Shown: piece after piece, positions 19,404-33,098 of the stretch
Numbering within the stretch: the first letter of the stretch is position 1
How the letters are laid out: each line of letters opens with the position of its first letter
Origin: Clostridia bacterium
GTDB taxonomy: Bacteria; Bacillota; Clostridia; Oscillospirales; SIG627
NCBI GenBank assembly: GCA_017959745.1
Contig: JAGDAA010000160.1
Span: forward strand, 1 to 33,098
Direction: 5' to 3'
Length of the DNA stretch: 33,098 bases
Program-made: the position numbers and the translations under genes
The notes under the pieces: model-generated
Told to the model about the DNA's origin: nothing
Seen by the model: the letters and a program-made list of their open reading frames with translations, nothing else
Databases searched by the model: none

Positions 19404-22370
19404 TTATTCACTGCGCAGCGCCACAACGGGATCCCGCCGCGCGGCGACTCCTGAGGGGATCAATCCCGCCAGATATGTCAGTGCCATGCTGATAACCACC
19501 AGGATGACAGCCCCGATCGCCGGCAGGGCGGCGCCGATGGTGGAAATGCCGGAAAGGGAGCGGATAATGGCATTGATGGGGATGATGAGGATCAGTGTGA
19601 ACCCGATGCCGATGAGACCGGCGACAAATCCCTCGATCAGGGTTTCCGCATTGAAGACCCGGGCGATATCCCGCCGGGAGGCGCCGATGGAACGGAGAAT
19701 ACCGATTTCTTTGGTGCGTTCCAATACGGAAATGTAGGTGATGATTCCGATCATAATGGAGGAGACCACCAGGGAGATAGCGACAAAGGCGACCAAAACG
19801 TAGGAAATGGCGTTGATGATGGTAGAAATGGAGGACATCAGAAGCGCGACGTAATCGGTATAGGTGATCTGGTCCGCTTCGGATTTGCCCTCGTTGTAGG
19901 CGGCGATGCAGTCGGAAATAGCGTCCTTATCGTTGAAGGTGTTGGCGTAGATATAAATGGCATCCGGCTTTTCCTGATCCAGGTATCCGATCCGTTTTAG
20001 AACATCTTTTTGATTGGATTCGGAGAATAGAGCCGGCATATAGTTATCATAGAGCGTTACCAGCTGGCTGGCGCTGAAAGTGCTCTGCGCCAGCGCCGCG
20101 TCAAACGCCGCCGCCAACTGGGCTTCGCTGTAGGCGCTGAAGCGGCGCGTGGCTTCCCGGGTATACTGCTGACGGATCTGCTCCGCCAATCCGTCCGTTA
20201 CCGCCTTGCGCAGATCCTCATCGGACATTTCCGCAACGTAGGAGAGAATATATCCGGTATCCGTTCCTTCTTTTTCGCTGGCGGTGATGTACCCGACGAC
20301 GAGTTGTTCCAAACCCGCCCGATCCAGACCGCCGATGGTCTGGTCAATCGCGGCGGCGACGTATTCGTCGCTCGCCTGGGTCATCAGGGAGAGATACATG
20401 GCACTCTTCTGGGACGGGTCGGCGTCTTTCGCCCAATCGGTGATCAATCCGGGCTTATCCTCTTCGCCGGGGACGGGGTCGTTTTCGGTGCGGAAGGGAA
20501 GCCCTAACACAACGTCCGTCTCGGGATGATCAAACTGCGCCTGTACCATTTCCTGCTTTTTCGTTTCCGTGAGGATATATTCGGTCAGAGCGGCCGTATA
20601 GCCCATAGTCCCGTTCAGCATCCCGGCGGTGGCGTCCTCTTTCTGACGGATGACGCCGGATATGGTCAGCGTGATGCCGCGGTCGCTGTTAAAGAGATAG
20701 TTCAGCCCGTTTTCCGTTTCCGTCAGCAGCGTATAGCCCTGTTCCAGGTTCTTTTGATACAGTTCCGGGGTCAGGAACAGGCGAAAGCTGCGAGAGAGTA
20801 CATCCTCATAGGAAAAGGCGCGGTACTGAATATCAATCTGCTCCCCCTGGCTGGTGGTTTTCAGTTGATCCGCCAGCTCGCTCATGGTCTTGAATCCCAG
20901 CGCGCCCAGCATCATATCGCTGACTTCATTGTTCTTATCAACGATCAGGACCACCTGATCGTAGCGCTCCGGCCATTTACCAGCCAGCAGGTCATACTGT
21001 CCGGGGATCAGGCTGTTGATCAAGGCGCCGTCCTCCCCGGGGAGCATTTCCTCCCAGAGCCTCAGGCGTGAAAAGTTCGCGCCTTCGTCTCTGGCGCCGA
21101 ACGCCTCAGAAGGGATCCCCGCTTCCCGGAAAACGTCCTTCATCATCGTATTCACGTCGCTGCGTCTGCGAAGACCATCGCCATCCTCCGTGTAGATGTT
21201 CAGATCCACGTTGTAGCTATAGTGAACGTCGGAAATATGGGATCCGATCCCCTCAGTATCTTTTTCCAGATAGTCGCGAAACGCCTTTGTGTCGTTGGTG
21301 TTGACGCCGGCACTGTTCAGGGAGTTGACCAGCTCGCCCATAACACTGGAGGAATAGACCGCGTCCAGTTCGTGTGCTTCGCCGGCCTCCCCCCGGCGAA
21401 TGCCCATCAGGGTTGTCAGTACGCCGCTGAGGTCTATGCTCTCCGCCTGAATGATAATGGGATAGCTGGAAAGTGTGTCTTCCTGGACCTGCTCAATATA
21501 CTGATTGATGCCGTTTGAGAGCGACAGGATCAGGGCGATCCCGATGATGCCGATGGATCCGGCGAAGGCGGTGAGAAGGGTGCGCCCCTTCTTTGTCATC
21601 AGATTATGAAGGGAGAGACTCAGCGCCGTGAAGAAGGACATGGAGGGCCTTTTTACCTTCACGTCCGCGCTTTTCTCCTTTTCGTCCCGGTCGTCATAGG
21701 GCATGGAATCATCCACCACTTTTCCGTCCAGGAGCTTTATGATGCGTGTGGAATACGTTTCCGCCAGGGCGGGGTTGTGGGTAACCATGATGACCAGTCT
21801 GTCTTGCGCCACTTCTTTCAGCAGATCCATAATCTGTACGCTGGTGACGGAATCCAGCGCGCCGGTGGGCTCGTCCGCCAGCAGGATCTCCGGATCGTTC
21901 ACCAGGGCTCTGGCAATGGCGACCCTTTGCATCTGACCGCCGGACAGCTGGTTCGGACGCTTTTTCATTTGATCCTTCAAGCCAACCCGCTCCAACGCCT
22001 TCCGGGCTCTATTCCTACGCTCCGATTTGGAAACGCCGGAGAGAGTGAGCGCCAGCTCCACGTTGGCGAGCACACTTTGGTGGGGGATAAGGTTATAGTT
22101 CTGAAACACAAATCCAACGGAATGGTTGCGGTAAGCGTCCCAGTCAATGGGGGAAAACTGCTTTGTGCTTTTCCCGTTGATGACAAGATCCCCCTCCGTG
22201 TAGCGATCCAGCCCGCCGATGAGGTTGAGCAGCGTGGTTTTTCCGCACCCGGAAGGCCCCAATACGGAAACAAATTCATTCTTTCTGAAAGACAAATCAA
22301 TCCCGCGCAAAGCGGAGACCCGATCGTCTCCGGAAAGGTAATCTTTGGTAATGCCACACAGTTTCAGCAT
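19404..22370 (-). CDS. Fused ABC transporter ATP-binding protein/permease (MacB/FtsX-like)
   Basis: GPSGCGKT, LSGGQMQR and LADEPTG; one TM helix, a large extracellular domain, then C-terminal SVLERTKEIGILRSIGA permease. Confidence 0.92.
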   Translation of the reverse strand: MLKLCGITKDYLSGDDRVSALRGIDLSFRKNEFVSVLGPSGCGKTTLLNLIGGLDRYTEGDLVINGKSTKQFSPIDWDAYRNHSVGFVFQNYNLIPHQSVLANVELALTLSGVSKSERRNRARKALERVGLKDQMKKRPNQLSGGQMQRVAIARALVNDPEILLADEPTGALDSVTSVQIMDLLKEVAQDRLVIMVTHNPALAETYSTRIIKLLDGKVVDDSMPYDDRDEKEKSADVKVKRPSMSFFTALSLSLHNLMTKKGRTLLTAFAGSIGIIGIALILSLSNGINQYIEQVQEDTLSSYPIIIQAESIDLSGVLTTLMGIRRGEAGEAHELDAVYSSSVMGELVNSLNSAGVNTNDTKAFRDYLEKDTEGIGSHISDVHYSYNVDLNIYTEDGDGLRRRSDVNTMMKDVFREAGIPSEAFGARDEGANFSRLRLWEEMLPGEDGALINSLIPGQYDLLAGKWPERYDQVVLIVDKNNEVSDMMLGALGFKTMSELADQLKTTSQGEQIDIQYRAFSYEDVLSRSFRLFLTPELYQKNLEQGYTLLTETENGLNYLFNSDRGITLTISGVIRQKEDATAGMLNGTMGYTAALTEYILTETKKQEMVQAQFDHPETDVVLGLPFRTENDPVPGEEDKPGLITDWAKDADPSQKSAMYLSLMTQASDEYVAAAIDQTIGGLDRAGLEQLVVGYITASEKEGTDTGYILSYVAEMSDEDLRKAVTDGLAEQIRQQYTREATRRFSAYSEAQLAAAFDAALAQSTFSASQLVTLYDNYMPALFSESNQKDVLKRIGYLDQEKPDAIYIYANTFNDKDAISDCIAAYNEGKSEADQITYTDYVALLMSSISTIINAISYVLVAFVAISLVVSSIMIGIITYISVLERTKEIGILRSIGASRRDIARVFNAETLIEGFVAGLIGIGFTLILIIPINAIIRSLSGISTIGAALPAIGAVILVVISMALTYLAGLIPSGVAARRDPVVALRSE

Positions 22371-24041: not shown

Positions 24042-24070
24042 TTGACAAAGCGGGGATTATTGTGTAATAT
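24042..24070 (+). promoter_or_regulatory. sigmaA promoter of T-box leader 1
   Basis: TTGACA-17 nt-TAATAT. Confidence 0.78.
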
Positions 24071-24079
24071 ACCCGCATA

Positions 24080-24338
24080 AATGCAAGGATGATATTACGT
24101 TTTCCGGCAATGCTTTCCAAGAGAGCCGCGGCAGGTGTGAAGCGGTAAAGGATCCGGAGGACGGTCTCGTATCGGAGCAGAGCGCCCGAAAGGAAACCGG
24201 TAAGGCGCTACGGGAGATCCCGTTACAGGTCGGGGACTTGCTTGAGTCCCGCAGAGTGGCTGGATTTACAGCAACCCGGGTGGTACCGTGGCAAAAATCG
24301 TTTTGTCATCCCGCGGAGGTTATCTCCGCGGGTTTTTT
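24080..24338 (+). ncRNA. T-box riboswitch, predicted Leu specifier (CUC at 24166-24168)
   Basis: Stem I with AGAGA bulge and GGTGTGAA loop; T-box GGGTGGTACCGTGG at 24278-24291; antiterminator helices CGGG/CCCG and GTGGCAAAA/TTTTGTCAT; overlapping terminator. Confidence 0.92.
24310..24338 (+). terminator. Attenuator terminator of T-box 1
   Basis: CCCGCGGAG-gttat-CTCCGCGGG-TTTTTT; shares its 5' arm with the antiterminator. Confidence 0.88.
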
Positions 24339-24363
24339 GTTTGAAGTGTAGAAAGGAATCGGT

Positions 24364-25752
24364 ATGAAAAAAATCTTCGTCTGCGACTGCACCCTTCCCG
24401 TTCTTACCGGCGAGCGCACCCGCCCGCTTTTGGCGAGAGAAAAGAACGCTCTGGCACAGCGCCTTGACGCGTTGGGCGTGGATATTCTGGAGCTTCCCGC
24501 CGTACGGAACATAAAAGAGGATACCATTATCCATAAGACAATCGCCTCCGGCGTGGGAGGAAGGATACTCGCTGTACCCGCCGGGGACAGTGAGGAAGCT
24601 GTTGATGCCGCCTGGGAGGGTGTTTCCGGCGCGGAAAAGCCCATGTTGACGATCGCGCTCCCGATCTCCACCGTGCAGATGGAGTACCGCTATCACCTGA
24701 AGGAAAACAAGATGGCGGGGAAGGTTAGCGCTCTGGTCGGGTATGCGAAGAAAAAAGGATGTCTTGTGGCGTTTTCCGCCGGCGACGCTTCTCGGGCATC
24801 CGAGCCATTTCTGACGGAGATATCCCGTACCGCTGTCGCCGCCGGCGCCGATTATCTGATCTTCTGCGACGACGCGGGGGATCTTTTGCCTGAGGAACTC
24901 GCCCGCAAGATCCGCTTGGTCAAGGATGCTGTTACGGTGCCCGTTATTGTCTCTCTCTCCGACAGTATCCATTGCGCCTGTGCCAACGCTATAACGGCAT
25001 TGCGCGCCGGCGCGGACGGCGTTCGTTGCGCTGTGACCGGGGCAGACGTGCTTCATACCGGCGCTCTCGCCGCGGCGATTGCCGCGTTGGGCGATACCCT
25101 TTCCATCTCTGTCGGATTGAGGGAAACCGAGGTCCATAATGATATTTCCGAAATGTTAAAGCATGTTTCCTCTTCCCAAAAGCCCGTATCAGGGAGTGAA
25201 TCCGCCGGTGTGATCCTGGACGCTGAAAGCACGCCCGCTCAGATCGGTGAAGCGGTCCGTTCCCTGGGATACGATCTTTCCGCTGACGATTTGGGAAAGG
25301 TCTGCGAATCCGTCGCCCGCATCTGTGAGAAAAAGAGCAGCATCGGGGACGTGGAACTGGAAGCGGTCATCGCTTCTTCCGCTATGCAGGCGCCTTCCAC
25401 CTACCATTTGGTCAGTTATCAGATCACCAGCAGCAACGTTGCCAGGGCAATGGCGAGCATCACGCTCTCCCGCGGGGATGAAACGGTGTGCGGCGTGGCA
25501 ACCGGCGACGGACCCATCGATTGTTGCTTTAAGGCCATTGAACAGTCCATCGGCTACCATTATGAACTGGACGATTTTCAGATCCAGGCGGTGACGGAGG
25601 GTAAGGAGGCTTTGGGCTCCGCGCTGGTCCGTCTGCGCAGTCAGGGAAAACTGTACTCCGGAAACGGTCTCTCCGCCGATATTGTCGGCGCCAGTATCCG
25701 CGCGTATATCAACGCTTTGAACAAGATTGTCTATGAGGAAACAGAAAGATGA
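24364..25752 (+). CDS. LeuA (2-isopropylmalate synthase)-like protein with a degenerate catalytic barrel and intact allosteric domain
   Basis: C-terminal GDGPID...QAVTEGKEALG...G.G.S.DIVGASIRAYINALNK is conserved. DTTLRDGEQ has become DCTLPVLTG and HxHND has become SLSD. Confidence 0.85.
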   Translation: MKKIFVCDCTLPVLTGERTRPLLAREKNALAQRLDALGVDILELPAVRNIKEDTIIHKTIASGVGGRILAVPAGDSEEAVDAAWEGVSGAEKPMLTIALPISTVQMEYRYHLKENKMAGKVSALVGYAKKKGCLVAFSAGDASRASEPFLTEISRTAVAAGADYLIFCDDAGDLLPEELARKIRLVKDAVTVPVIVSLSDSIHCACANAITALRAGADGVRCAVTGADVLHTGALAAAIAALGDTLSISVGLRETEVHNDISEMLKHVSSSQKPVSGSESAGVILDAESTPAQIGEAVRSLGYDLSADDLGKVCESVARICEKKSSIGDVELEAVIASSAMQAPSTYHLVSYQITSSNVARAMASITLSRGDETVCGVATGDGPIDCCFKAIEQSIGYHYELDDFQIQAVTEGKEALGSALVRLRSQGKLYSGNGLSADIVGASIRAYINALNKIVYEETER

Positions 25753-28211
25753 AGCTCGTCTTTTCAACGCATAACGTTAAGCGGGGATTCTTTTTGGATC
25801 TTTGCCGGATGGCTTTTGATTATGGCTTTTCCGGGTTTGAGATTTATGATGCCGTTTCCGAGCGCCGCTACCACGGGGACAGCGTTCTTCGCGCTGAGAT
25901 CGCATCCGATGCCAAGAGGAAGCTCCACAACCGCTCTCTCTCCGTTTCCGCGCTGACGGTCCCGCTTCCTCTGGAGGATGACGGATGTACGCCGCGCCTT
26001 TTGCTCCAGTACGTTGAAATGGCGCAGAGCGCCGGGGTGGAGCAGATCATCGTCCATACCGCCGGTGAAAACGATCTGCCTCTGTTTATGGAAAAACTCG
26101 GGGACGCCGTTAAGCGGGCGGAAGCTCTGGGTGTGGAGATCCTGTTTGAAACCACGGGATACCTGGCTGAAACGGAACACGCCCTGGAGATCGTCAACGG
26201 CTTTTCCTCCGCCGCCATCGGCGTAGCGTGGAACATCCGGGAAACCTTCTTCTCCGCCGGTGAAAGCGCCGAGAACACCATCAAAACGCTGGGCGCCTAC
26301 ATCCGTTACGTTCGCTTTGGCGACCGCAAGGAGGGAAAGGACGTTCTCGTTGGCGAAGGGGAACTCCCCGCGGTCTCCTTTATCAATGCCCTTCGCTCCC
26401 TGAATTTTGAGGGGTATATCGCCTGCGCCTGGAATGAGGAGATTACAGACGCGGATATTGTTTTAACGCATTTTCAAACTTATATGACCGGCTTTGAGAA
26501 AAGCGCTCATACCACCCGGGCTTTGCCCACGAACCGTGCCGGTACGGGGACTTTTCCCTGGAAAAAGTACGATACCATCGACCTGACCTTTCCCCAGGTG
26601 CTGGACGTAATGGCGGAGACTTATCCCGATCAGCTGGCGTTCAAATATACCACGCTGGATTATACCCGCACCTACGCCCAGTTTCGCCGAGATGTTGACC
26701 GGGTGGCGGCGGCTTTCATCGCTATGGGCGTGAAGCCCGGCTATCACGTTGCCATCTGGGCGACAAACGTTCCCGCCTGGTTTTTGACCTTCTGGGCGGC
26801 TACCAAGATCGGCGCCGTTCTGGTGACGGTAAATACCGCCTATAAGATCCACGAGGCGGAATACCTGCTGCGGCAGTCCGATACACACACTCTCATTATG
26901 ATCGAGTCTTCCAAGGATTCCGACTATAAGGGGATCATGGAGGAACTGTGCCCCGAGCTTGCCACGCTGGAAAAGGGAAAGCCCCTGTACGCCAAACGGC
27001 TTCCGTTTCTCCGGAACATTATTACCGTCGACTTTTCTATGAATGGATGCCTCACCTGGGAGGAAATGATGGACACGGCGGAGCGCACGCCCCCCGAGGA
27101 AGTCCGCCGCCGCGCCTCCCGGGTCCGTCCGGACGACGTATGTAATATGCAGTATACCTCCGGCACCACCGGTTTTCCCAAGGGCGTTATGCTGACCCAT
27201 TCCAATATTATCAACAACGGTAAGATCATCGGCGACCGTATGGATATGTCCACCGCGGACCGGATGATGATCCAGGTGCCTATGTTCCATTGCTTCGGCA
27301 TGGTGCTCTCCATGACCAATATGATGACCCACGGCGGCACCATGTGCCCCATGCCCTATTTTTCGCCGAAGTCCTGCCTGTCCTGTATCACAAACGAAAA
27401 GATCACCTGCTTCAACGGCGTACCCACTATGTTCATTGCACTTTTCAATCATGAGGACTTCGCCGTGACCGATTTCTCTCATATGCGTACCGGCATTATG
27501 GCGGGCTCCAACTGTCCGCCGGACCTGATGCGCCGCGCCGCGAGAGAAATGAATATGCGGGAGATCCTTTCCGTGTACGGGCAGACCGAATCTAGTCCGG
27601 GCTGCACCATGGGCGAGGTAAACGAGGATGAGGATCATCGGGTGGAAACCGTCGGCTCGGCTTTTCCGGGTGTTCAGTGCAAAATCATCGACCCCGAGAC
27701 CGGAAAGGATTTACCAGACGGAGAGAACGGCGAGTTCGTGGCAAAGGGCTTCAATATTATGAAAGGCTATTACAAAATGCCGGAAGCCACCAAACAGACC
27801 ATCGATGAAGATGGCTGGCTCCATACCGGCGATATCTGCTGCCGCACGACGGACGGATATTACAAGGTGACCGGACGTTTGAAGGATATGATCATCCGCG
27901 GCGGAGAAAATCTGTATCCCCGGGAGATCGAAGAGTTTTACCTGACCCATCCCAAGGTGAGGGACGTACAGGTCATCGGTGTGCCGGATGAGAAGTACGG
28001 GGAGGAGGCGTGCGCCTGGATAATCCTTCACGACCACGAGGAAAGCGGGGAAGAGGAAATGCGTGAATACGGCAATGCTCATATGGCGCGCCACAAGGTG
28101 CCCCGGTACTTCCTGTTCGTAAAGGATTTTCCCATGAACGCCGCCGGAAAGATTTTAAAGTACAAGATGAAGGAAAGCTCTGTGGAGCTTTTGGGTCTGG
28201 AAAAGAAATAA
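25749..28211 (+). CDS. Fusion of a degenerate xylose-isomerase-like TIM barrel and an AMP-forming acyl-CoA ligase
   Basis: The first ~250 aa resemble the AP-endonuclease-2/sugar epimerase barrel. C-terminal YTSGTTGFPKG, YGQTE, GWLHTGD, GRLKDMIIRGGEN and GKILK motifs are intact. Confidence 0.88.
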   Translation: MKLVFSTHNVKRGFFLDLCRMAFDYGFSGFEIYDAVSERRYHGDSVLRAEIASDAKRKLHNRSLSVSALTVPLPLEDDGCTPRLLLQYVEMAQSAGVEQIIVHTAGENDLPLFMEKLGDAVKRAEALGVEILFETTGYLAETEHALEIVNGFSSAAIGVAWNIRETFFSAGESAENTIKTLGAYIRYVRFGDRKEGKDVLVGEGELPAVSFINALRSLNFEGYIACAWNEEITDADIVLTHFQTYMTGFEKSAHTTRALPTNRAGTGTFPWKKYDTIDLTFPQVLDVMAETYPDQLAFKYTTLDYTRTYAQFRRDVDRVAAAFIAMGVKPGYHVAIWATNVPAWFLTFWAATKIGAVLVTVNTAYKIHEAEYLLRQSDTHTLIMIESSKDSDYKGIMEELCPELATLEKGKPLYAKRLPFLRNIITVDFSMNGCLTWEEMMDTAERTPPEEVRRRASRVRPDDVCNMQYTSGTTGFPKGVMLTHSNIINNGKIIGDRMDMSTADRMMIQVPMFHCFGMVLSMTNMMTHGGTMCPMPYFSPKSCLSCITNEKITCFNGVPTMFIALFNHEDFAVTDFSHMRTGIMAGSNCPPDLMRRAAREMNMREILSVYGQTESSPGCTMGEVNEDEDHRVETVGSAFPGVQCKIIDPETGKDLPDGENGEFVAKGFNIMKGYYKMPEATKQTIDEDGWLHTGDICCRTTDGYYKVTGRLKDMIIRGGENLYPREIEEFYLTHPKVRDVQVIGVPDEKYGEEACAWIILHDHEESGEEEMREYGNAHMARHKVPRYFLFVKDFPMNAAGKILKYKMKESSVELLGLEKK

Positions 28212-28245
28212 GGACTTTTTTCGCCCGAAAAATTACGAAAAGACC

Positions 28246-28274
28246 TTGACAACAGACAAACGCGGTGATACAAT
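28246..28274 (+). promoter_or_regulatory. sigmaA promoter of T-box leader 2
   Basis: TTGACA-17 nt-TACAAT with TGn extension. Confidence 0.82.
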
Positions 28275-28286
28275 CGCCATAGTCCC

Positions 28287-28555
28287 AAAAAGCGATGACG
28301 AAGACGGAGCTGATCGTGAAGCCCCAAGAGAGCCGGGGACGGTGTGATCCCGGCGGTGAAAGATCTCCCTCCCATCCCTTCCGAGCTGAAGGTCCGAACA
28401 CCCTTCGTTAGTAGGCGCCTTCCGTGATTGCTGCGTAAACGCATACGGCTTGTCAGAGCCTGAGTGGCGGTTTTATCCGCAATTTGAGTGGTACCGCGGG
28501 TCTTGAAGAGGTTTCAAGCTCGTCTCAAAGTAGATTCTTTGGGACGAGTTTTTTT
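28287..28555 (+). ncRNA. T-box riboswitch, predicted Ile specifier (AUC at 28374-28376)
   Basis: AGAGA bulge and GGTGTGA loop; stem II GAA/AGTA S-turn; T-box GAGTGGTACCGCGG at 28486-28499; antiterminator helices TTGAG/CTCAA and GCGGG/CTCGT. Confidence 0.92.
28519..28555 (+). terminator. Attenuator terminator of T-box 2
   Basis: CTCGTCTCAAAG-tagatt-CTTTGGGACGAG-T7. Confidence 0.88.
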
Positions 28556-28572: not shown

Positions 28573-30837
28573 ATGAACACCGCAAAGCCTATGCAAAACG
28601 AACTGACCGAGGTCGCTTCCCGCATTCGTGCTATTCGTGAGATCCTTGGCTACACGGAAGAAGCTATGGCGGGACTGACCGAAGTCTCCGTGTCGGATTA
28701 CGTCACGTATGAAAGCGGAAAGGTGGATCTGCCCTTTACTTTTATCCACAAATGCGCGCTGGCGTTCCGTATGGAGCTCACCGAGCTTTTGGAAGGGCAC
28801 GACGCGCACCTGTCCTCCTACACGGTCACCCGCAAGGGGCAAGGACATCAGACCGCCAAAGAAGACGGCATTATGATCCAGAATCTTGCGCCCAAGTTCA
28901 AGAGCAAGATCGCGGAGCCCTACTGGGTCCGCTACGAGTATTCCGAGGAACTTCAGAACAAGCCCATTCACCTGACCCGGCACAGCGGGCAGGAGTTTGA
29001 CCTGATTTTGTCCGGCTCCCTTTTGGTGCAGGTCGGAAAACACCAGGAGGTTCTCCGGGAAGGGGACAGCATTTACTACAACAGTTCCACGCCTCACGGT
29101 ATGATCGCGGTTGGCGGGAAGGACTGCGTATTCTGCGCGGTGGTCCTGCCCGGCGAGGACGGAAGCCGGGACGAAATGAGACAGACCGCTACCGCAGCCG
29201 ATACAAGGCTTTTGTGCGAGGAATTCGTCACCACCGGCGTGGACGAATCGGGGCGTCTCCAATCGGTGGAGTTTCACAATACGGAGCGCTTCAATTTCGG
29301 GTATGACGTGGTGGATCGAATCGCCGATCATTATCCCGAAAAGCTCGCAATGATCCATCTGGATAAAAACAAGGTGGAGCGGCGCTTTACCTTCAAGGAT
29401 ATCAAGAAGGAGTCCAACCGCACCGCAAACTACTTCCGCTCTTTGGGCATCAAAAAGGGCGACAAGGTTATGCTGGTTCTGAAGCGCCATTATCAGTTCT
29501 GGTTCGCCATGGTGGCGCTCCACAAGCTGGGCGCCATCGCCATCCCCGCTACCTACCTTCTCAAAGTTCATGATTTTGAGTATCGCTATAACGCAGCCGG
29601 GGTCAACGCCATTGTATGCACCGCCGACGGAGACACCGCTGATCTGGCGGAACAGGCCATGAAGAATTCCCCCACGGTGACCACCAGGGTCCTGGTGGGC
29701 GGTAAAAAGGACGGCTGGCACGATTTCGACGCGGAGTACCCGTTGTTCTCCAGCGTCTTTCCCCGCACGGAAGAAACCCCCGCGGGAGACGAGCCCGCCT
29801 TGATGTTCTTCTCCTCCGGTACCACCGGGAATCCCAAGATGGTGGAGCACAAGCACACCTACAGCCTGGGGCACTTCCTGACGGCGCGCTATTGGCATTG
29901 CTGTGAGCCGGACGGCTTACACTTCACCATTTCCGATACCGGCTGGGGCAAGTCCCTGTGGGGCAAGCTCTACGGACAGTGGATGTGTGAGGGCGCGGTT
30001 TTCGTTTATGACTTCGATCGGTTTGACGCTTCGGATATCCTTCCCATGTTCGCCAAGTATCAGATCACGACCTTCTGCGCGCCGCCCACTATGCTGCGTA
30101 TGATGATCAAGCAGGATATTTCCAAGTACGACTTTTCCTCCGTGAAGCATATGACCACGGCTGGGGAGGCGCTGAATCCCGAGGTTTATCGGCAATTCGA
30201 GAAAGCCACGGGGCTGGAGATTATGGAGGGCTTCGGACAGACGGAGACCACTCTTGTCATCGCTAACTTCGCCGGAACCCCGGTCAAGATCGGCTCTATG
30301 GGTATCGCATCTCCCCAGTACAAATTGGAACTGGTGGATAAGGACGATAAACCCGTGCCGCCCGGAGAGGTGGGTGAGATCGCCATCCGCTTGGATGGGG
30401 GAAGCCCGGTCGGTCTGTTTCGTCAGTACCTGGCGGAAGAAGAAAAGACCGCCGAATGTATGCGCAACGGACTGTATCACACCGGCGATACCGCCTGGAG
30501 AGACGAAGACGGCTACTTCTGGTACGTGGGCCGTGTGGACGACATCATCAAGTCCTCCGGCTACCGCATCGGACCCTTTGAGATCGAGAGTGTCATCATG
30601 GAACTGCCCTACGTTCTGGAGTGCGGCGTTTCCGCCGCCCCCGACGAGATCCGCGGGCAGATCGTCAAGGCGAGCGTCGTTCTGACCAAGGGTACCAAGC
30701 CCACGGAGGAACTGAAAAAGGAAATCCAGAACTACGTCAAGGAGCATACCGCTCCTTACAAATACCCGAGACTTGTGGTGTTCCGGGATGAACTGCCCAA
30801 GACCATCAGCGGTAAGATCCGCCGCAACGAGCTGTAA
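28573..30837 (+). CDS. Fusion of an XRE HTH-cupin regulator module and a medium-chain acyl-CoA synthetase-like ligase
   Basis: N-terminal RIRAIRE...YESGK HTH and cupin HSGQEF...LREGDSIYYNSSTPHGM; then FSSGTTGNPK, SDTGWGK, EGFGQTET, YHTGD, GRVDDIIKSSGYRIGP and PKTISGKIRR. Confidence 0.9.
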   Translation: MNTAKPMQNELTEVASRIRAIREILGYTEEAMAGLTEVSVSDYVTYESGKVDLPFTFIHKCALAFRMELTELLEGHDAHLSSYTVTRKGQGHQTAKEDGIMIQNLAPKFKSKIAEPYWVRYEYSEELQNKPIHLTRHSGQEFDLILSGSLLVQVGKHQEVLREGDSIYYNSSTPHGMIAVGGKDCVFCAVVLPGEDGSRDEMRQTATAADTRLLCEEFVTTGVDESGRLQSVEFHNTERFNFGYDVVDRIADHYPEKLAMIHLDKNKVERRFTFKDIKKESNRTANYFRSLGIKKGDKVMLVLKRHYQFWFAMVALHKLGAIAIPATYLLKVHDFEYRYNAAGVNAIVCTADGDTADLAEQAMKNSPTVTTRVLVGGKKDGWHDFDAEYPLFSSVFPRTEETPAGDEPALMFFSSGTTGNPKMVEHKHTYSLGHFLTARYWHCCEPDGLHFTISDTGWGKSLWGKLYGQWMCEGAVFVYDFDRFDASDILPMFAKYQITTFCAPPTMLRMMIKQDISKYDFSSVKHMTTAGEALNPEVYRQFEKATGLEIMEGFGQTETTLVIANFAGTPVKIGSMGIASPQYKLELVDKDDKPVPPGEVGEIAIRLDGGSPVGLFRQYLAEEEKTAECMRNGLYHTGDTAWRDEDGYFWYVGRVDDIIKSSGYRIGPFEIESVIMELPYVLECGVSAAPDEIRGQIVKASVVLTKGTKPTEELKKEIQNYVKEHTAPYKYPRLVVFRDELPKTISGKIRRNEL

Positions 30838-30884: not shown

Positions 30885-31958
30885 ATGGCTTACAACATTC
30901 CGATTACAAAAACACAGAATCCCAAGCCCCTGCCTCAGGATGAGACCAAGCTGGGCTTCGGAAGGATCTTCACCGATCATATGTTCGTGTGGGATTGGGA
31001 TAAAGAGAAGGGCTGGCACGATCCCCGTATTGAGCCTTTCGGTCCCATCGTCCTGCACCCTGCCTCCACCGTTCTGCACTACGGCGCGGAGATTTTTGAG
31101 GGTTTGAAGGCATATCGCAGGATTGACGGCACAATCGCCATGTTCCGTCCCCAGGAGAATTTCAAGCGTATGAACCGTTCCGCCGAGCGGATGGGTCTGC
31201 CGGAATTCGACGGCGAGCTGGCGTTGGAAGGTCTCACGAAACTGGTGGATCTGGATTCCGAATGGATCCCTCACGGTGAAGGGACCAGTCTCTATATCCG
31301 CCCCTTTATGATCGGCGACGATGAGCATTTGGGCGTTCACGCCGTATCTCACGCCCGTTTTTACATCATCCTTTCCCCTTCCGGAAGCTACTATGCCGGC
31401 GGCCTGGCACCCGTGAAGATTATGATTGAATCCCACGATGTGCGCGCGGTCCGCGGCGGCACGGGCGAAGCCAAGTGCGGCGGTAACTACGCTGCCAGCA
31501 CCCGCGCCGGCGAGAAGGCCATGGAGAAGGGCTTTGCCCAGGTTTTGTGGCTGGACGGTGTGGAACAGAAGTACATCGAAGAAGTTGGTGCGATGAACAT
31601 TATGTTCAAGATCGCCGGCAAGATCGTCACCCCTGCGCTCACCGGTTCCATTCTGCCCGGTATCACCCGGAAGAGCATCCTGGAGTATCTCCGCGCCCAT
31701 GGCGTGGACGCCGAGGAACGCCGGATCAGCGTGGATGAACTGGCGAAAGCTATGGAAGACGGCACGCTGGAGGAAGCCTGGGGCTGCGGCACCGCGGCGG
31801 TGGTGTCTCCCGTGGGTCTCCTTTCTTACAACGGCAAGGAATATGAGATCGCCGGCGGAAAGATCGGCGAAACGACGCAGATGCTCTACGACGCCATCAC
31901 CGGCATCCAGTGGGGCAAGCGTCCTGATGAATTCGGCTGGATCTACAAGGTGAAATGA
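30885..31958 (+). CDS. ilvE: Branched-chain amino acid aminotransferase
   Basis: LGFGRIFTDHM, LHYGAEIFEGLKAYR, KCGGNYA (PLP Lys), EEVGAMN, ILPGITR and GTAAVVSPVG. Confidence 0.96.
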   Translation: MAYNIPITKTQNPKPLPQDETKLGFGRIFTDHMFVWDWDKEKGWHDPRIEPFGPIVLHPASTVLHYGAEIFEGLKAYRRIDGTIAMFRPQENFKRMNRSAERMGLPEFDGELALEGLTKLVDLDSEWIPHGEGTSLYIRPFMIGDDEHLGVHAVSHARFYIILSPSGSYYAGGLAPVKIMIESHDVRAVRGGTGEAKCGGNYAASTRAGEKAMEKGFAQVLWLDGVEQKYIEEVGAMNIMFKIAGKIVTPALTGSILPGITRKSILEYLRAHGVDAEERRISVDELAKAMEDGTLEEAWGCGTAAVVSPVGLLSYNGKEYEIAGGKIGETTQMLYDAITGIQWGKRPDEFGWIYKVK

Positions 31959-32596
31959 AGCGCGTAACCCTGTTTTGCGGGCATTACGGCAGCGGTAAGA
32001 CCAATATCGCCATCAACTACACCAAGTCATTGATTAAACGCGGCTTGCCTGTGACCATCGCTGACCTGGATGTGGTCAATCCCTACTTTCGAACCAAGGA
32101 CAGCGAGGCGGAATTGATCGAAGCGGGCGCGAAGGTCATCACGATGCCCTTTGCCAACAGCAACGTGGATCTCCCGTCCCTTCCCGCTGAGGCATACGCC
32201 CTCGTACAGGACAAAATCCGCTACGCCGTGATCGACGTGGGCGGTGACGACCGGGGCGCTTTGGCGCTGGGTCGGTACGTTCCGTACATCCTGGAGGAAA
32301 ACAACTACGATATGCTCTGTGTCGTGAACTTTTACCGCCCGCTGACTACCACGCCCGGGGAGGCGCTGGAAGTGTTGCGGGAGGTGGAAGCGGCGGCGGG
32401 ACTCCCTTTCACGGGGATCGTCAACAATTCCAATCTGGGAGCGGAGACCACCAGGGAAGCGATAGAAGCGAGCAAGGATAAAGCGGCTGCTTTGTCGAAA
32501 CTTGCCGGCATTCCGGTGCGTTTTACCTCCGTCCGCGCCGACCTTGCCTGTGGCGACGAATTTCCACTTGATTTGCAAAAGAAAATTTTTGAATAG
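31955..32596 (+). CDS. P-loop NTPase of unknown function (MinD/CooC/CobQ-like fold)
   Basis: GHYGSGKT, ADLDVVNPYFRT and IDVGGD; ATGA-coupled to ilvE. Confidence 0.8.
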   Translation: MKRVTLFCGHYGSGKTNIAINYTKSLIKRGLPVTIADLDVVNPYFRTKDSEAELIEAGAKVITMPFANSNVDLPSLPAEAYALVQDKIRYAVIDVGGDDRGALALGRYVPYILEENNYDMLCVVNFYRPLTTTPGEALEVLREVEAAAGLPFTGIVNNSNLGAETTREAIEASKDKAAALSKLAGIPVRFTSVRADLACGDEFPLDLQKKIFE

Positions 32597-32605
32597 GAGA
32601 ACGGT

Positions 32606-32812
32606 ATGGCAAAAGTTACGTTTCAAACCGACCTGTGCAAGGGCTGCGGTCTGTGTGTGGCAGCCTGCCCCAAGAAGATCCTGGTGATTGCCAAGGATAA
32701 GATCAACAAAAAGGGTCATTCCCCTGCCGAAATGACGGATCAGTCCCAGTGCATCGGATGCGCTTTCTGCGCGACTATGTGCCCGGATTGCGTCATTACG
32801 GTGGAAAAGTGA
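32606..32812 (+). CDS. 2[4Fe-4S] delta subunit of a 2-oxoacid:ferredoxin oxidoreductase
   Basis: CKGCGLCVAACP and CIGCAFCATMCPD; directly upstream of vorB. Confidence 0.92.
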   Translation: MAKVTFQTDLCKGCGLCVAACPKKILVIAKDKINKKGHSPAEMTDQSQCIGCAFCATMCPDCVITVEK

Positions 32813-32821
32813 GGTGAGAGT

Positions 32822-33098
32822 ATGGCGGAAAAAGTATTGATGAAGGGCAACGAGGCCATCGCCGAAGCGGCGATTCGCGCCGGTTGCCGCCACTATTTCG
32901 GCTATCCCATCACGCCCCAGACGGAACTGGCGGCGTATATGGCAAAGCGTATGCCCAAGATCGGCGGCGTCTTCCTCCAGGCGGAGAGCGAGATCGCCGC
33001 GATCAACATGGTCTACGGCGTTTCCGGTACCGGTAAGCGCGTCATGACTTCTTCCTCCTCCCCCGGCGTTTCCTTAAAGCAGGAGGGCATTTCCTACA
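32822..33098 (+). CDS. vorB: 2-oxoisovalerate (3-methyl-2-oxobutanoate):ferredoxin oxidoreductase alpha-type subunit VorB, 3'-truncated; absent from the ORF track
   Basis: My translation reads [35 protein letters not shown]...[14 protein letters not shown]...[17 protein letters not shown]; GAGGTG RBS. Confidence 0.88.

Follow-up and report, generated by a model that had tools for sequence, protein, structure and literature searches.

Leucine and isoleucine T-box riboswitches precede two acyl-CoA ligases proposed to supply branched-chain amino acid synthesis in a Clostridia bacterium

The 33,098-nucleotide stretch of DNA analysed here (the window; contig JAGDAA010000160.1 of assembly GCA_017959745.1, from a Clostridia bacterium of the order Oscillospirales) ends in two consecutive operons on the forward strand, each of which opens with a class-I transcriptional T-box riboswitch equipped with its own promoter, stem I, UGGU bulge and intrinsic terminator. 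Behind the first riboswitch, which presents a leucine codon, lie genes for a LeuA-like protein and an AMP-forming acyl-CoA ligase (ligase 1); behind the second, which presents an isoleucine codon, lie genes for another acyl-CoA ligase (ligase 2), the branched-chain amino acid aminotransferase IlvE, a P-loop protein and two subunits of a 2-oxoacid:ferredoxin oxidoreductase. It is likely, in our judgement, that the two T-box-gated ligases, together with IlvE and an oxidoreductase of the 2-oxoisovalerate:ferredoxin oxidoreductase (VOR) type, rebuild leucine and isoleucine from branched short-chain fatty acids that gut microbes produce. The assembly that holds the window amounts to 1.65 Mb and is 77% complete, a limit that applies wherever a gene is said below not to have been found in it.

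Leader 1 matches the Rfam T-box model RF00230 at 24077-24316 (90.5 bits, E = 1.8e-19, model positions 1-219). It follows a promoter-like site at 24042-24070 (TTGACA-17-TAATAT, 10 of 12 consensus matches, from the consensus scan only) and contains the specifier codon CUC at 24166-24168 (model positions 91-93 of the cmscan alignment), the UGGU of the T-box bulge at 24281-24284 and an intrinsic terminator at 24310-24338, whose 10-bp stem and T run were found both by the scan and by folding. Leader 2 has the same plan. The model match at 28286-28530 (71.2 bits, E = 1.7e-14, again model positions 1-219) lies downstream of a promoter-like site at 28246-28274 (TTGACA-17-TACAAT, 11 of 12 matches in the consensus scan), and it is followed by an intrinsic terminator at 28519-28555 (12-bp stem, 6-nt loop, seven T) that was drawn from the fold and is absent from the consensus-scan list. 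Its specifier codon, AUC, is at 28374-28376 and its UGGU at 28489-28492. Both bulges were placed from the sequence together with the cmscan alignment. According to the alignments and folds, both leaders possess a stem I in which the K-turn base, the specifier loop and the distal AGAGA/GGUG motifs are all present. In the cmscan alignment, the antiterminator's 3' strand (model positions 208-216) overlaps the 5' strand of the terminator.

These matches were obtained by running cmscan with an E-value threshold. A default Rfam scan at gathering scores returned no match at either leader because both score below 93, the gathering score of RF00230. All six T-box matches of this genome fall below that value, including those before ileS, pheS and thrS, which makes the low scores a property of the lineage. 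The E-values against RF00230, together with the conservation of the triplets across relatives, argue that the match is not accidental. As in the class-I T-boxes that the ileS, pheS and thrS leaders exemplify here, the two leaders combine the same stem I, a T-box with a UGGN bulge, a competing terminator and a specifier slot in the canonical place; the leucine T-box of the Bacillus subtilis ilv-leu operon is another example of this transcriptional class.

In the cmscan alignment, CUC plus G and AUC plus C occupy model positions 91-94, which constitute the specifier slot. The geometry of the slot is a codon, one nucleotide, a 4-bp helix, NGA and a 2-bp closing helix. In leader 1 the CTC is followed by G-TATC-G and then by GAGC at 24175-24178, and in leader 2 the ATC is followed by C-CTTC-C and then by GAGC at 28383-28386. 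The spacing of 6 nt between triplet and GAGC is therefore the canonical one, made up of one base after the codon, the 4-bp helix and then the N that opens the NGA strand of the K-turn. The original prediction, made from the bare sequence, had singled out these two triplets by their distance of 6 nt from the GAGC closing stem I. Both are where it put them, and the alignment to the Rfam T-box model that it had proposed as a check sets both in the specifier slot. Control leaders from the same genome calibrate this placement: in three of the four, these model positions hold the codon that fits the downstream gene (UGG upstream of a TrpB-like gene, UUC upstream of pheS, AUC upstream of ileS), and the thrS leader (65.7 bits) is poorly aligned at the slot. 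The UGG leader has a UGGC bulge, is located at 6276-6518 of contig C113 in genome G000 and precedes a TrpB-like gene of the PRK12391 type rather than a standard trp operon.

The bulges carry less information than the codons. The earlier reading of UGGU in both, matching an A discriminator, agrees with the sequence and with the tRNA-Leu(GAG) of this genome, which has A73; UGGU would likewise match the A discriminator of a tRNA-Ile. The tRNA-Trp of the genome has G73 and fits the UGGC of the tryptophan leader. Since 16 of the 32 tRNAs detected in the assembly carry A73, UGGU is weakly selective.

Leader 1 could be compared with 30 orthologous leaders located before a LeuA-like/ligase-1 pair, three of which cmscan confirmed with 121-130 bits. 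Of the 30 specifier slots, 28 hold CUC, one holds CUG (L052) and one CCC (L042), so that 29 of the 30 present a leucine codon. The slot is preceded by GAA in 25 of these leaders (as GAA-CUC, GAA-CUG or GAA-CCC) and by GU in the other five. In the window, leader 1 shows the AGUA/GAA S-turn motifs of its specifier loop in degenerate form, and GUCUCG is unpaired in the minimum free energy (MFE) fold of stem I.

For leader 2, the MFE fold leaves CAUCC unpaired in stem I, and the choice among the overlapping triplets comes from conservation. AUC is kept in every readable leader of the ligase-2 orthologues and is the only invariant triplet there, because its flanking bases vary. The same variation eliminates CAU, UCC and CCC as specifiers. 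The histidine and serine readings also misfit the bulge, as the genome encodes a tRNA-His with C73 and tRNA-Ser species with G73, and the proline reading (CCC), whose tRNA has A73, is ruled out by the conservation argument only. Taken with the controls, the orthologues of both leaders strongly support the assignment of leader 1 to leucine and of leader 2 to isoleucine.

The first gene behind leader 1 (24364-25752) encodes a LeuA-like protein of 462 aa with HMGL-like and LeuA_dimer domains, the latter being the LeuA allosteric domain. Against models of 2-isopropylmalate synthase (IPMS) its best score is 240.5 bits, where the cut-offs are at least 517 and that of the best model is 532. In an alignment to the IPMS structure 6e1j, the HxH segment is missing and HCHND is reduced to HC and a gap. 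The LeuA_dimer regulatory domain is retained at 102 bits. On these sequence features the protein is probably not catalytic, and it is possibly a leucine sensor for ligase 1. Of 301 genomes sampled from the order, 73 contain a match to it at E <= 1e-40, and at all 30 loci returned the LeuA-like gene has a T-box motif before it and a ligase-1 homologue behind it.

Ligase 1 itself (25749-28211, 820 aa) is a fusion of a xylose-isomerase-like TIM barrel to an AMP-forming acyl-CoA ligase, with AP_endonuc_2, AMP-binding and AMP-binding_C domains. The barrel takes up the N-terminal third (25749-26570; AP_endonuc_2, 61.6 bits). The protein scores 652.2 bits with PRK12583, a fatty-acid CoA ligase family, under the subfamily cut-off of 832. 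The search for relatives in the PDB gave no informative match, the best reaching 250 bits with a feruloyl-CoA or fatty-acyl-CoA synthetase, and a search for shorter, unfused, named homologues returned only generically named fragments.

Ligase 2 (28573-30837, 754 aa) has better-known relatives. It consists of a helix-turn-helix (HTH) and a cupin domain fused to an acyl-CoA synthetase that resembles MacsMa and MbcS (HTH_19, Cupin_2, AMP-binding and AMP-binding_C). The closest solved structure is MacsMa of Methanosarcina acetivorans (PDB 3ETC, 3etc_A; E = 2.3e-186 over residues 236-753). Enzymes of the MbcS and MacsMa type are marked by a glycine where Acs has its pocket tryptophan and by an alternate pocket tryptophan (Trp259 of MacsMa). 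In this region the alignment preserves FGQTET and all tryptophans of the ARYW/GWGK/LWGK segment, the PDB residue numbering of this alignment not being matched to that of the paper. The two proteins thus share the GWGK/VWGK and FGQTET segments; unlike MacsMa, ligase 2 begins with some 235 additional residues that form the HTH and cupin domains, and an isoleucine T-box controls it. MacsMa adenylates acids from C3 to C8 and prefers 2-methylbutyrate (PMC10455477). Among the NCBIfam models, ligase 2 matches MbcS best, with 444.4 bits under an equivalog cut-off of 850, and at the level of sequence ligase 2 is accordingly classed as a relative, not an equivalog, of MbcS. The MbcS of Staphylococcus aureus feeds FabH, and its Km is below 10 uM for 2-methylbutyrate and isobutyrate and above 500 uM for isovalerate (PMC10026030). 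Unlike ligase 2, MbcS supplies fatty acid synthesis and lacks the HTH-cupin domain, and the available part of that report describes no T-box for it. Such poor use of isovalerate would explain why the leucine-gated ligase comes from another family. The selectivity of MbcS for alpha-branched acids matches the arrangement seen here, and it fits a division in which the ligase-2 paralogues serve the alpha-branched acids and ligase 1 serves the beta-branched isovalerate.

The paralogues in question occur in relatives. Ligase 2 was matched at E <= 1e-50 in 211 of the 301 sampled genomes, and a frequent gene order is ligase 1, T-box, ligase-2 orthologue, T-box, second paralogue. Specifiers were read before 90 full-length genes, of which 30 were the top matches, 40 were chosen at 54-62% identity and 20 were chosen second copies, by means of an anchored pattern and MAFFT alignments inspected by eye. 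The pattern called AUC in 55 leaders, AUC with a spurious second candidate in three, GUA in 17 and GUC in three, and made no call in 12. Among these 12, three variant leaders (L097, L100 and L104) read AUC by eye only, one is truncated by a contig end and eight have no T-box. The total is thus 58 to 61 AUC and 20 GUA or GUC among the 90. In four distant relatives (L100, L102, L104 and L106), the leader is shorter, its slot holds AUC and its T-box motif is a variant one (GAGUGGUAUAA/GUGGUUAU); such leaders perhaps represent another subclass of T-box.

In a quick IQ-TREE phylogeny with SH-aLRT supports, 19 of the 20 valine-gated ligases form one clade (support 100), which is sister (100) to a clade of 31 rows with AUC leaders (99) that includes ligase 2 of the window. 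The isoleucine and valine clades differ at 24 conserved columns, four in the ligase domain and 20 in the N-terminal HTH-cupin part. The four ligase-domain differences, from the isoleucine to the valine clade, are G459A, L462M, G474A and L561M; they adjoin the GWGK/LWGK and FGQTE segments, and the larger residue is always in the valine clade. We infer from this sequence neighbourhood that these positions may line the acyl pocket. The concentration of 20 of the 24 positions in the N-terminal part (28573-29280 in the window) suggests that the cupin recognizes a ligand specific to each clade. A valine-type paralogue was not found in this assembly. In the closest relative (G191) and in another genome of the same genus (G159), a GUA-gated paralogue is encoded on another contig. 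The third, valine-gated ligase of the relatives presumably activates isobutyrate.

Downstream of ligase 2, IlvE (30885-31958) scores above the cut-offs of both PRK13357 (471.6 bits, cut-off 307) and TIGR01123 (394.3 bits, cut-off 250). The next gene (31955-32596), between ilvE and the vor genes, encodes the P-loop protein, which gives a weak CbiA/MinD-type match (CbiA, E = 3.6e-4, under the cut-off) and no NCBIfam match. Open reading frames with the same starting residues occupy the same position in four relatives, and the protein might help the oxidoreductase to mature or serve it in some other accessory role. There follow a small VorD-like subunit of 68 aa that resembles a 2x[4Fe-4S] ferredoxin (32606-32812) and a VorB-like alpha subunit of the 2-oxoacid:ferredoxin oxidoreductase (32822-33097; PRK07119 VorB, E = 3.4e-49) that runs off the window, the 92 aa inside it scoring 167.5 bits against a cut-off of 399. 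In the closest relative, the VorB orthologue scores 561 bits, above the same cut-off, and is followed by beta and gamma subunits that are both under their equivalog cut-offs. The alpha subunit matches the VorB model of VOR, in the window over 92 aa and under the cut-off, and is accompanied by the ferredoxin-like subunit and, in the closest relative, by the beta and gamma subunits; the direction of carboxylation and the substrate range that we propose for the enzyme go beyond these matches. The same block of genes follows three T-box-gated ligases in other relatives, where the IlvE and VOR genes lie behind the last of three serial leaders. Upstream of the cluster, with no evident link to it, the reverse strand (19404-22370) encodes a MacB-like fusion of an ABC ATPase and an FtsX-type permease (988 aa).

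As far as incomplete genomes allow a judgement, the genus seems to lack the classical branched-chain pathway. In five genomes of the genus, which are 77-94% complete, IlvC was found in none, LeuC reached its cut-off in none and an IlvD-like gene, under the cut-off, was found in two, with controls at 14 of 14 each time. The apparent lack of IlvC and LeuC implies a need for another route to these amino acids.

The route that we propose would begin with uncharged tRNA-Leu(GAG), whose anticodon would pair with CUC and whose free ACCA end would pair with the UGGU of leader 1. This pairing would stabilize the antiterminator and allow RNA polymerase to read into the genes for the LeuA-like protein and ligase 1. 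At leader 2, tRNA-Ile(GAU) would act likewise through AUC to admit transcription of ligase 2, ilvE, the P-loop gene and the vor genes. Ligase 1 would convert isovalerate to isovaleryl-CoA, and ligase 2 would convert 2-methylbutyrate to 2-methylbutyryl-CoA. The VOR-type oxidoreductase would reductively carboxylate these thioesters to 4-methyl-2-oxopentanoate and 3-methyl-2-oxopentanoate, which IlvE would transaminate to leucine and isoleucine.

The original prediction had held that the specifier codons reveal the substrate of each ligase. Its first step, from codon to amino acid, is borne out by the control leaders and the orthologues. Its second step, from amino acid to substrate, is supported by inference: isovalerate for ligase 1 and 2-methylbutyrate for ligase 2 are well supported in this indirect sense, less so for ligase 1. 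The case for ligase 2 is good, drawing on the preference of MacsMa, the likeness to MbcS, the valine-gated sister clade and the IlvE and VOR genes downstream. The prediction had added that ligase 2 perhaps also activates isobutyrate; it may do so, but relatives, among them the closest, have a separate valine-gated paralogue.

Other roles for the ligases have to be weighed against this one. The strongest competitor, though an unlikely one, is that the codons report regulatory demand and not enzyme specificity, the ligases being broad or overlapping so that ligase 2 may serve both isoleucine and valine. The acceptance of both alpha-branched acids by MbcS at a Km below 10 uM (PMC10026030) and the C3 to C8 range of MacsMa (PMC10455477) would be in keeping with broad enzymes, as would the position of ligase 2 directly before ilvE and the vor genes. 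The missing valine-type paralogue also points this way, but the assembly is incomplete and both G191 and G159 hold such a gene on another contig. Against breadth, moreover, the valine and isoleucine clades are separate and differ at conserved positions of the ligase domain.

Less probable still is that ligase 1 takes some other leucine-related acid, or performs a chemistry not yet understood with its TIM barrel and LeuA-like partner. No characterized close homologue of the enzyme was found, and the LeuA-like gene and the barrel fusion, which have no obvious part in simple acid activation, are constant at all 30 loci. Yet the leaders of 29 of these loci specify leucine, in relatives the pair shares a cluster with VOR and IlvE, and the two remaining branched acids are already served by the isoleucine and valine paralogues. 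The LeuA-like protein, moreover, lacks the IPMS HxH segment and scores far under the IPMS cut-offs, and LeuC was not found in the genus.

We regard it as quite improbable that the ligases supply branched acyl-CoA primers for branched-chain fatty acids of the membrane instead of amino acids. The resemblance of ligase 2 to MbcS, which feeds FabH (PMC10026030), would favour such a role, but control by the charging of tRNA-Leu, tRNA-Ile or tRNA-Val signals a demand for amino acids, IlvE and a VOR-type enzyme share the transcription unit, and neither IlvC nor LeuC turned up in the genus. Finally, the suggestion that tRNA-Val reads leader 1 through the overlapping GUC at 24164-24166, which the original prediction had kept as a caveat and for which the G-U directly before CUC and the unpaired GUCUCG might speak, is scarcely credible, as this GUC is 2 nt out of register in the cmscan alignment, the 25 orthologues with GAA before the slot have no GUC, and relatives own a separate valine leader whose canonical slot holds GUA or GUC.

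Several observations weigh against the proposed rebuilding of leucine and isoleucine from branched acids, or against parts of it. Both leaders score under the Rfam gathering score (90.5 and 71.2 versus 93). Leader 2 is without the usual AGUA/GAA motifs of the specifier loop, its codon is followed by C and not by a purine, and the posterior probability of the alignment at that point is low; the missing purine is not unusual for this genome, because the UGG of the tryptophan leader and the UUC of the pheS leader also precede C, and the ileS leader reads AUC-A. A tRNA-Ile gene was not found in the 77%-complete assembly. Among the orthologues of leader 1, L042 (from genome G149) has CCC in the slot of an otherwise typical leader (121.5 bits), perhaps through a genuine substitution, perhaps through a fault in the assembly. 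The 90 ligase-2 genes were picked from a search list rather than at random; a T-box was not found before eight of them, and one gene with a valine leader (L090) lies outside the valine clade on a long branch. The substrate of ligase 1 is assigned from context, since no characterized close relative was found. In the window, ilvE and the vor genes belong only to the operon of the isoleucine leader, so leucine starvation alone would not obviously induce them.

The domains attached to the ligases invite a further, more tentative suggestion, which we consider possible but would not rely upon: that each amino acid is sensed in two layers, and that the cluster is the long-missing gene set that accounts for the need of ruminococci and related gut bacteria for branched-chain fatty acids. 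In the first layer, the T-box would read the charging of tRNA-Leu, tRNA-Ile or tRNA-Val and switch on the matching ligase. The second would be formed by the HTH-cupin part of the isoleucine and valine ligases and, for the leucine ligase, by a LeuA that has lost catalysis but still has the domain that binds leucine. In response to the finished amino acid, such a sensor would hold back either the enzyme or its own transcription. The location of 20 of the 24 clade-separating positions in the HTH-cupin part would be expected if that part recognizes the cognate amino acid or acid. In any case, the genes under control differ from the usual cargo of a T-box, which is an aminoacyl-tRNA synthetase, a classical biosynthetic gene or a transporter, in that an acyl-CoA ligase is here fused to or paired with a sensor-like domain.

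The chemistry itself has a long history. Anaerobes of the rumen and gut have been known since the 1960s to make leucine, isoleucine and valine from isovalerate, 2-methylbutyrate and isobutyrate (PMC7356843), and the reductive carboxylation of these isoacids in the rumen is the same overall chemistry as that proposed here. As far as the accessible part of this source goes, that work is labelling physiology and names neither genes nor regulation. Within a literature search whose coverage excluded most subscription journals, we found no paper that links T-boxes with branched-acid ligases or names the genes or the control of the isoacid route.

If the proposal is correct, the specifier codons of T-boxes would serve as built-in substrate labels for three otherwise unannotated 'AMP-binding proteins'. 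The ligases would then be direct targets for enzyme assays, and ligase-2 homologues are present in 211 of the 301 genomes sampled from the order. Knowledge of such a route would also, if the proposal holds, aid genome-scale models of gut and rumen communities and the work on isoacid supplements in ruminant nutrition.

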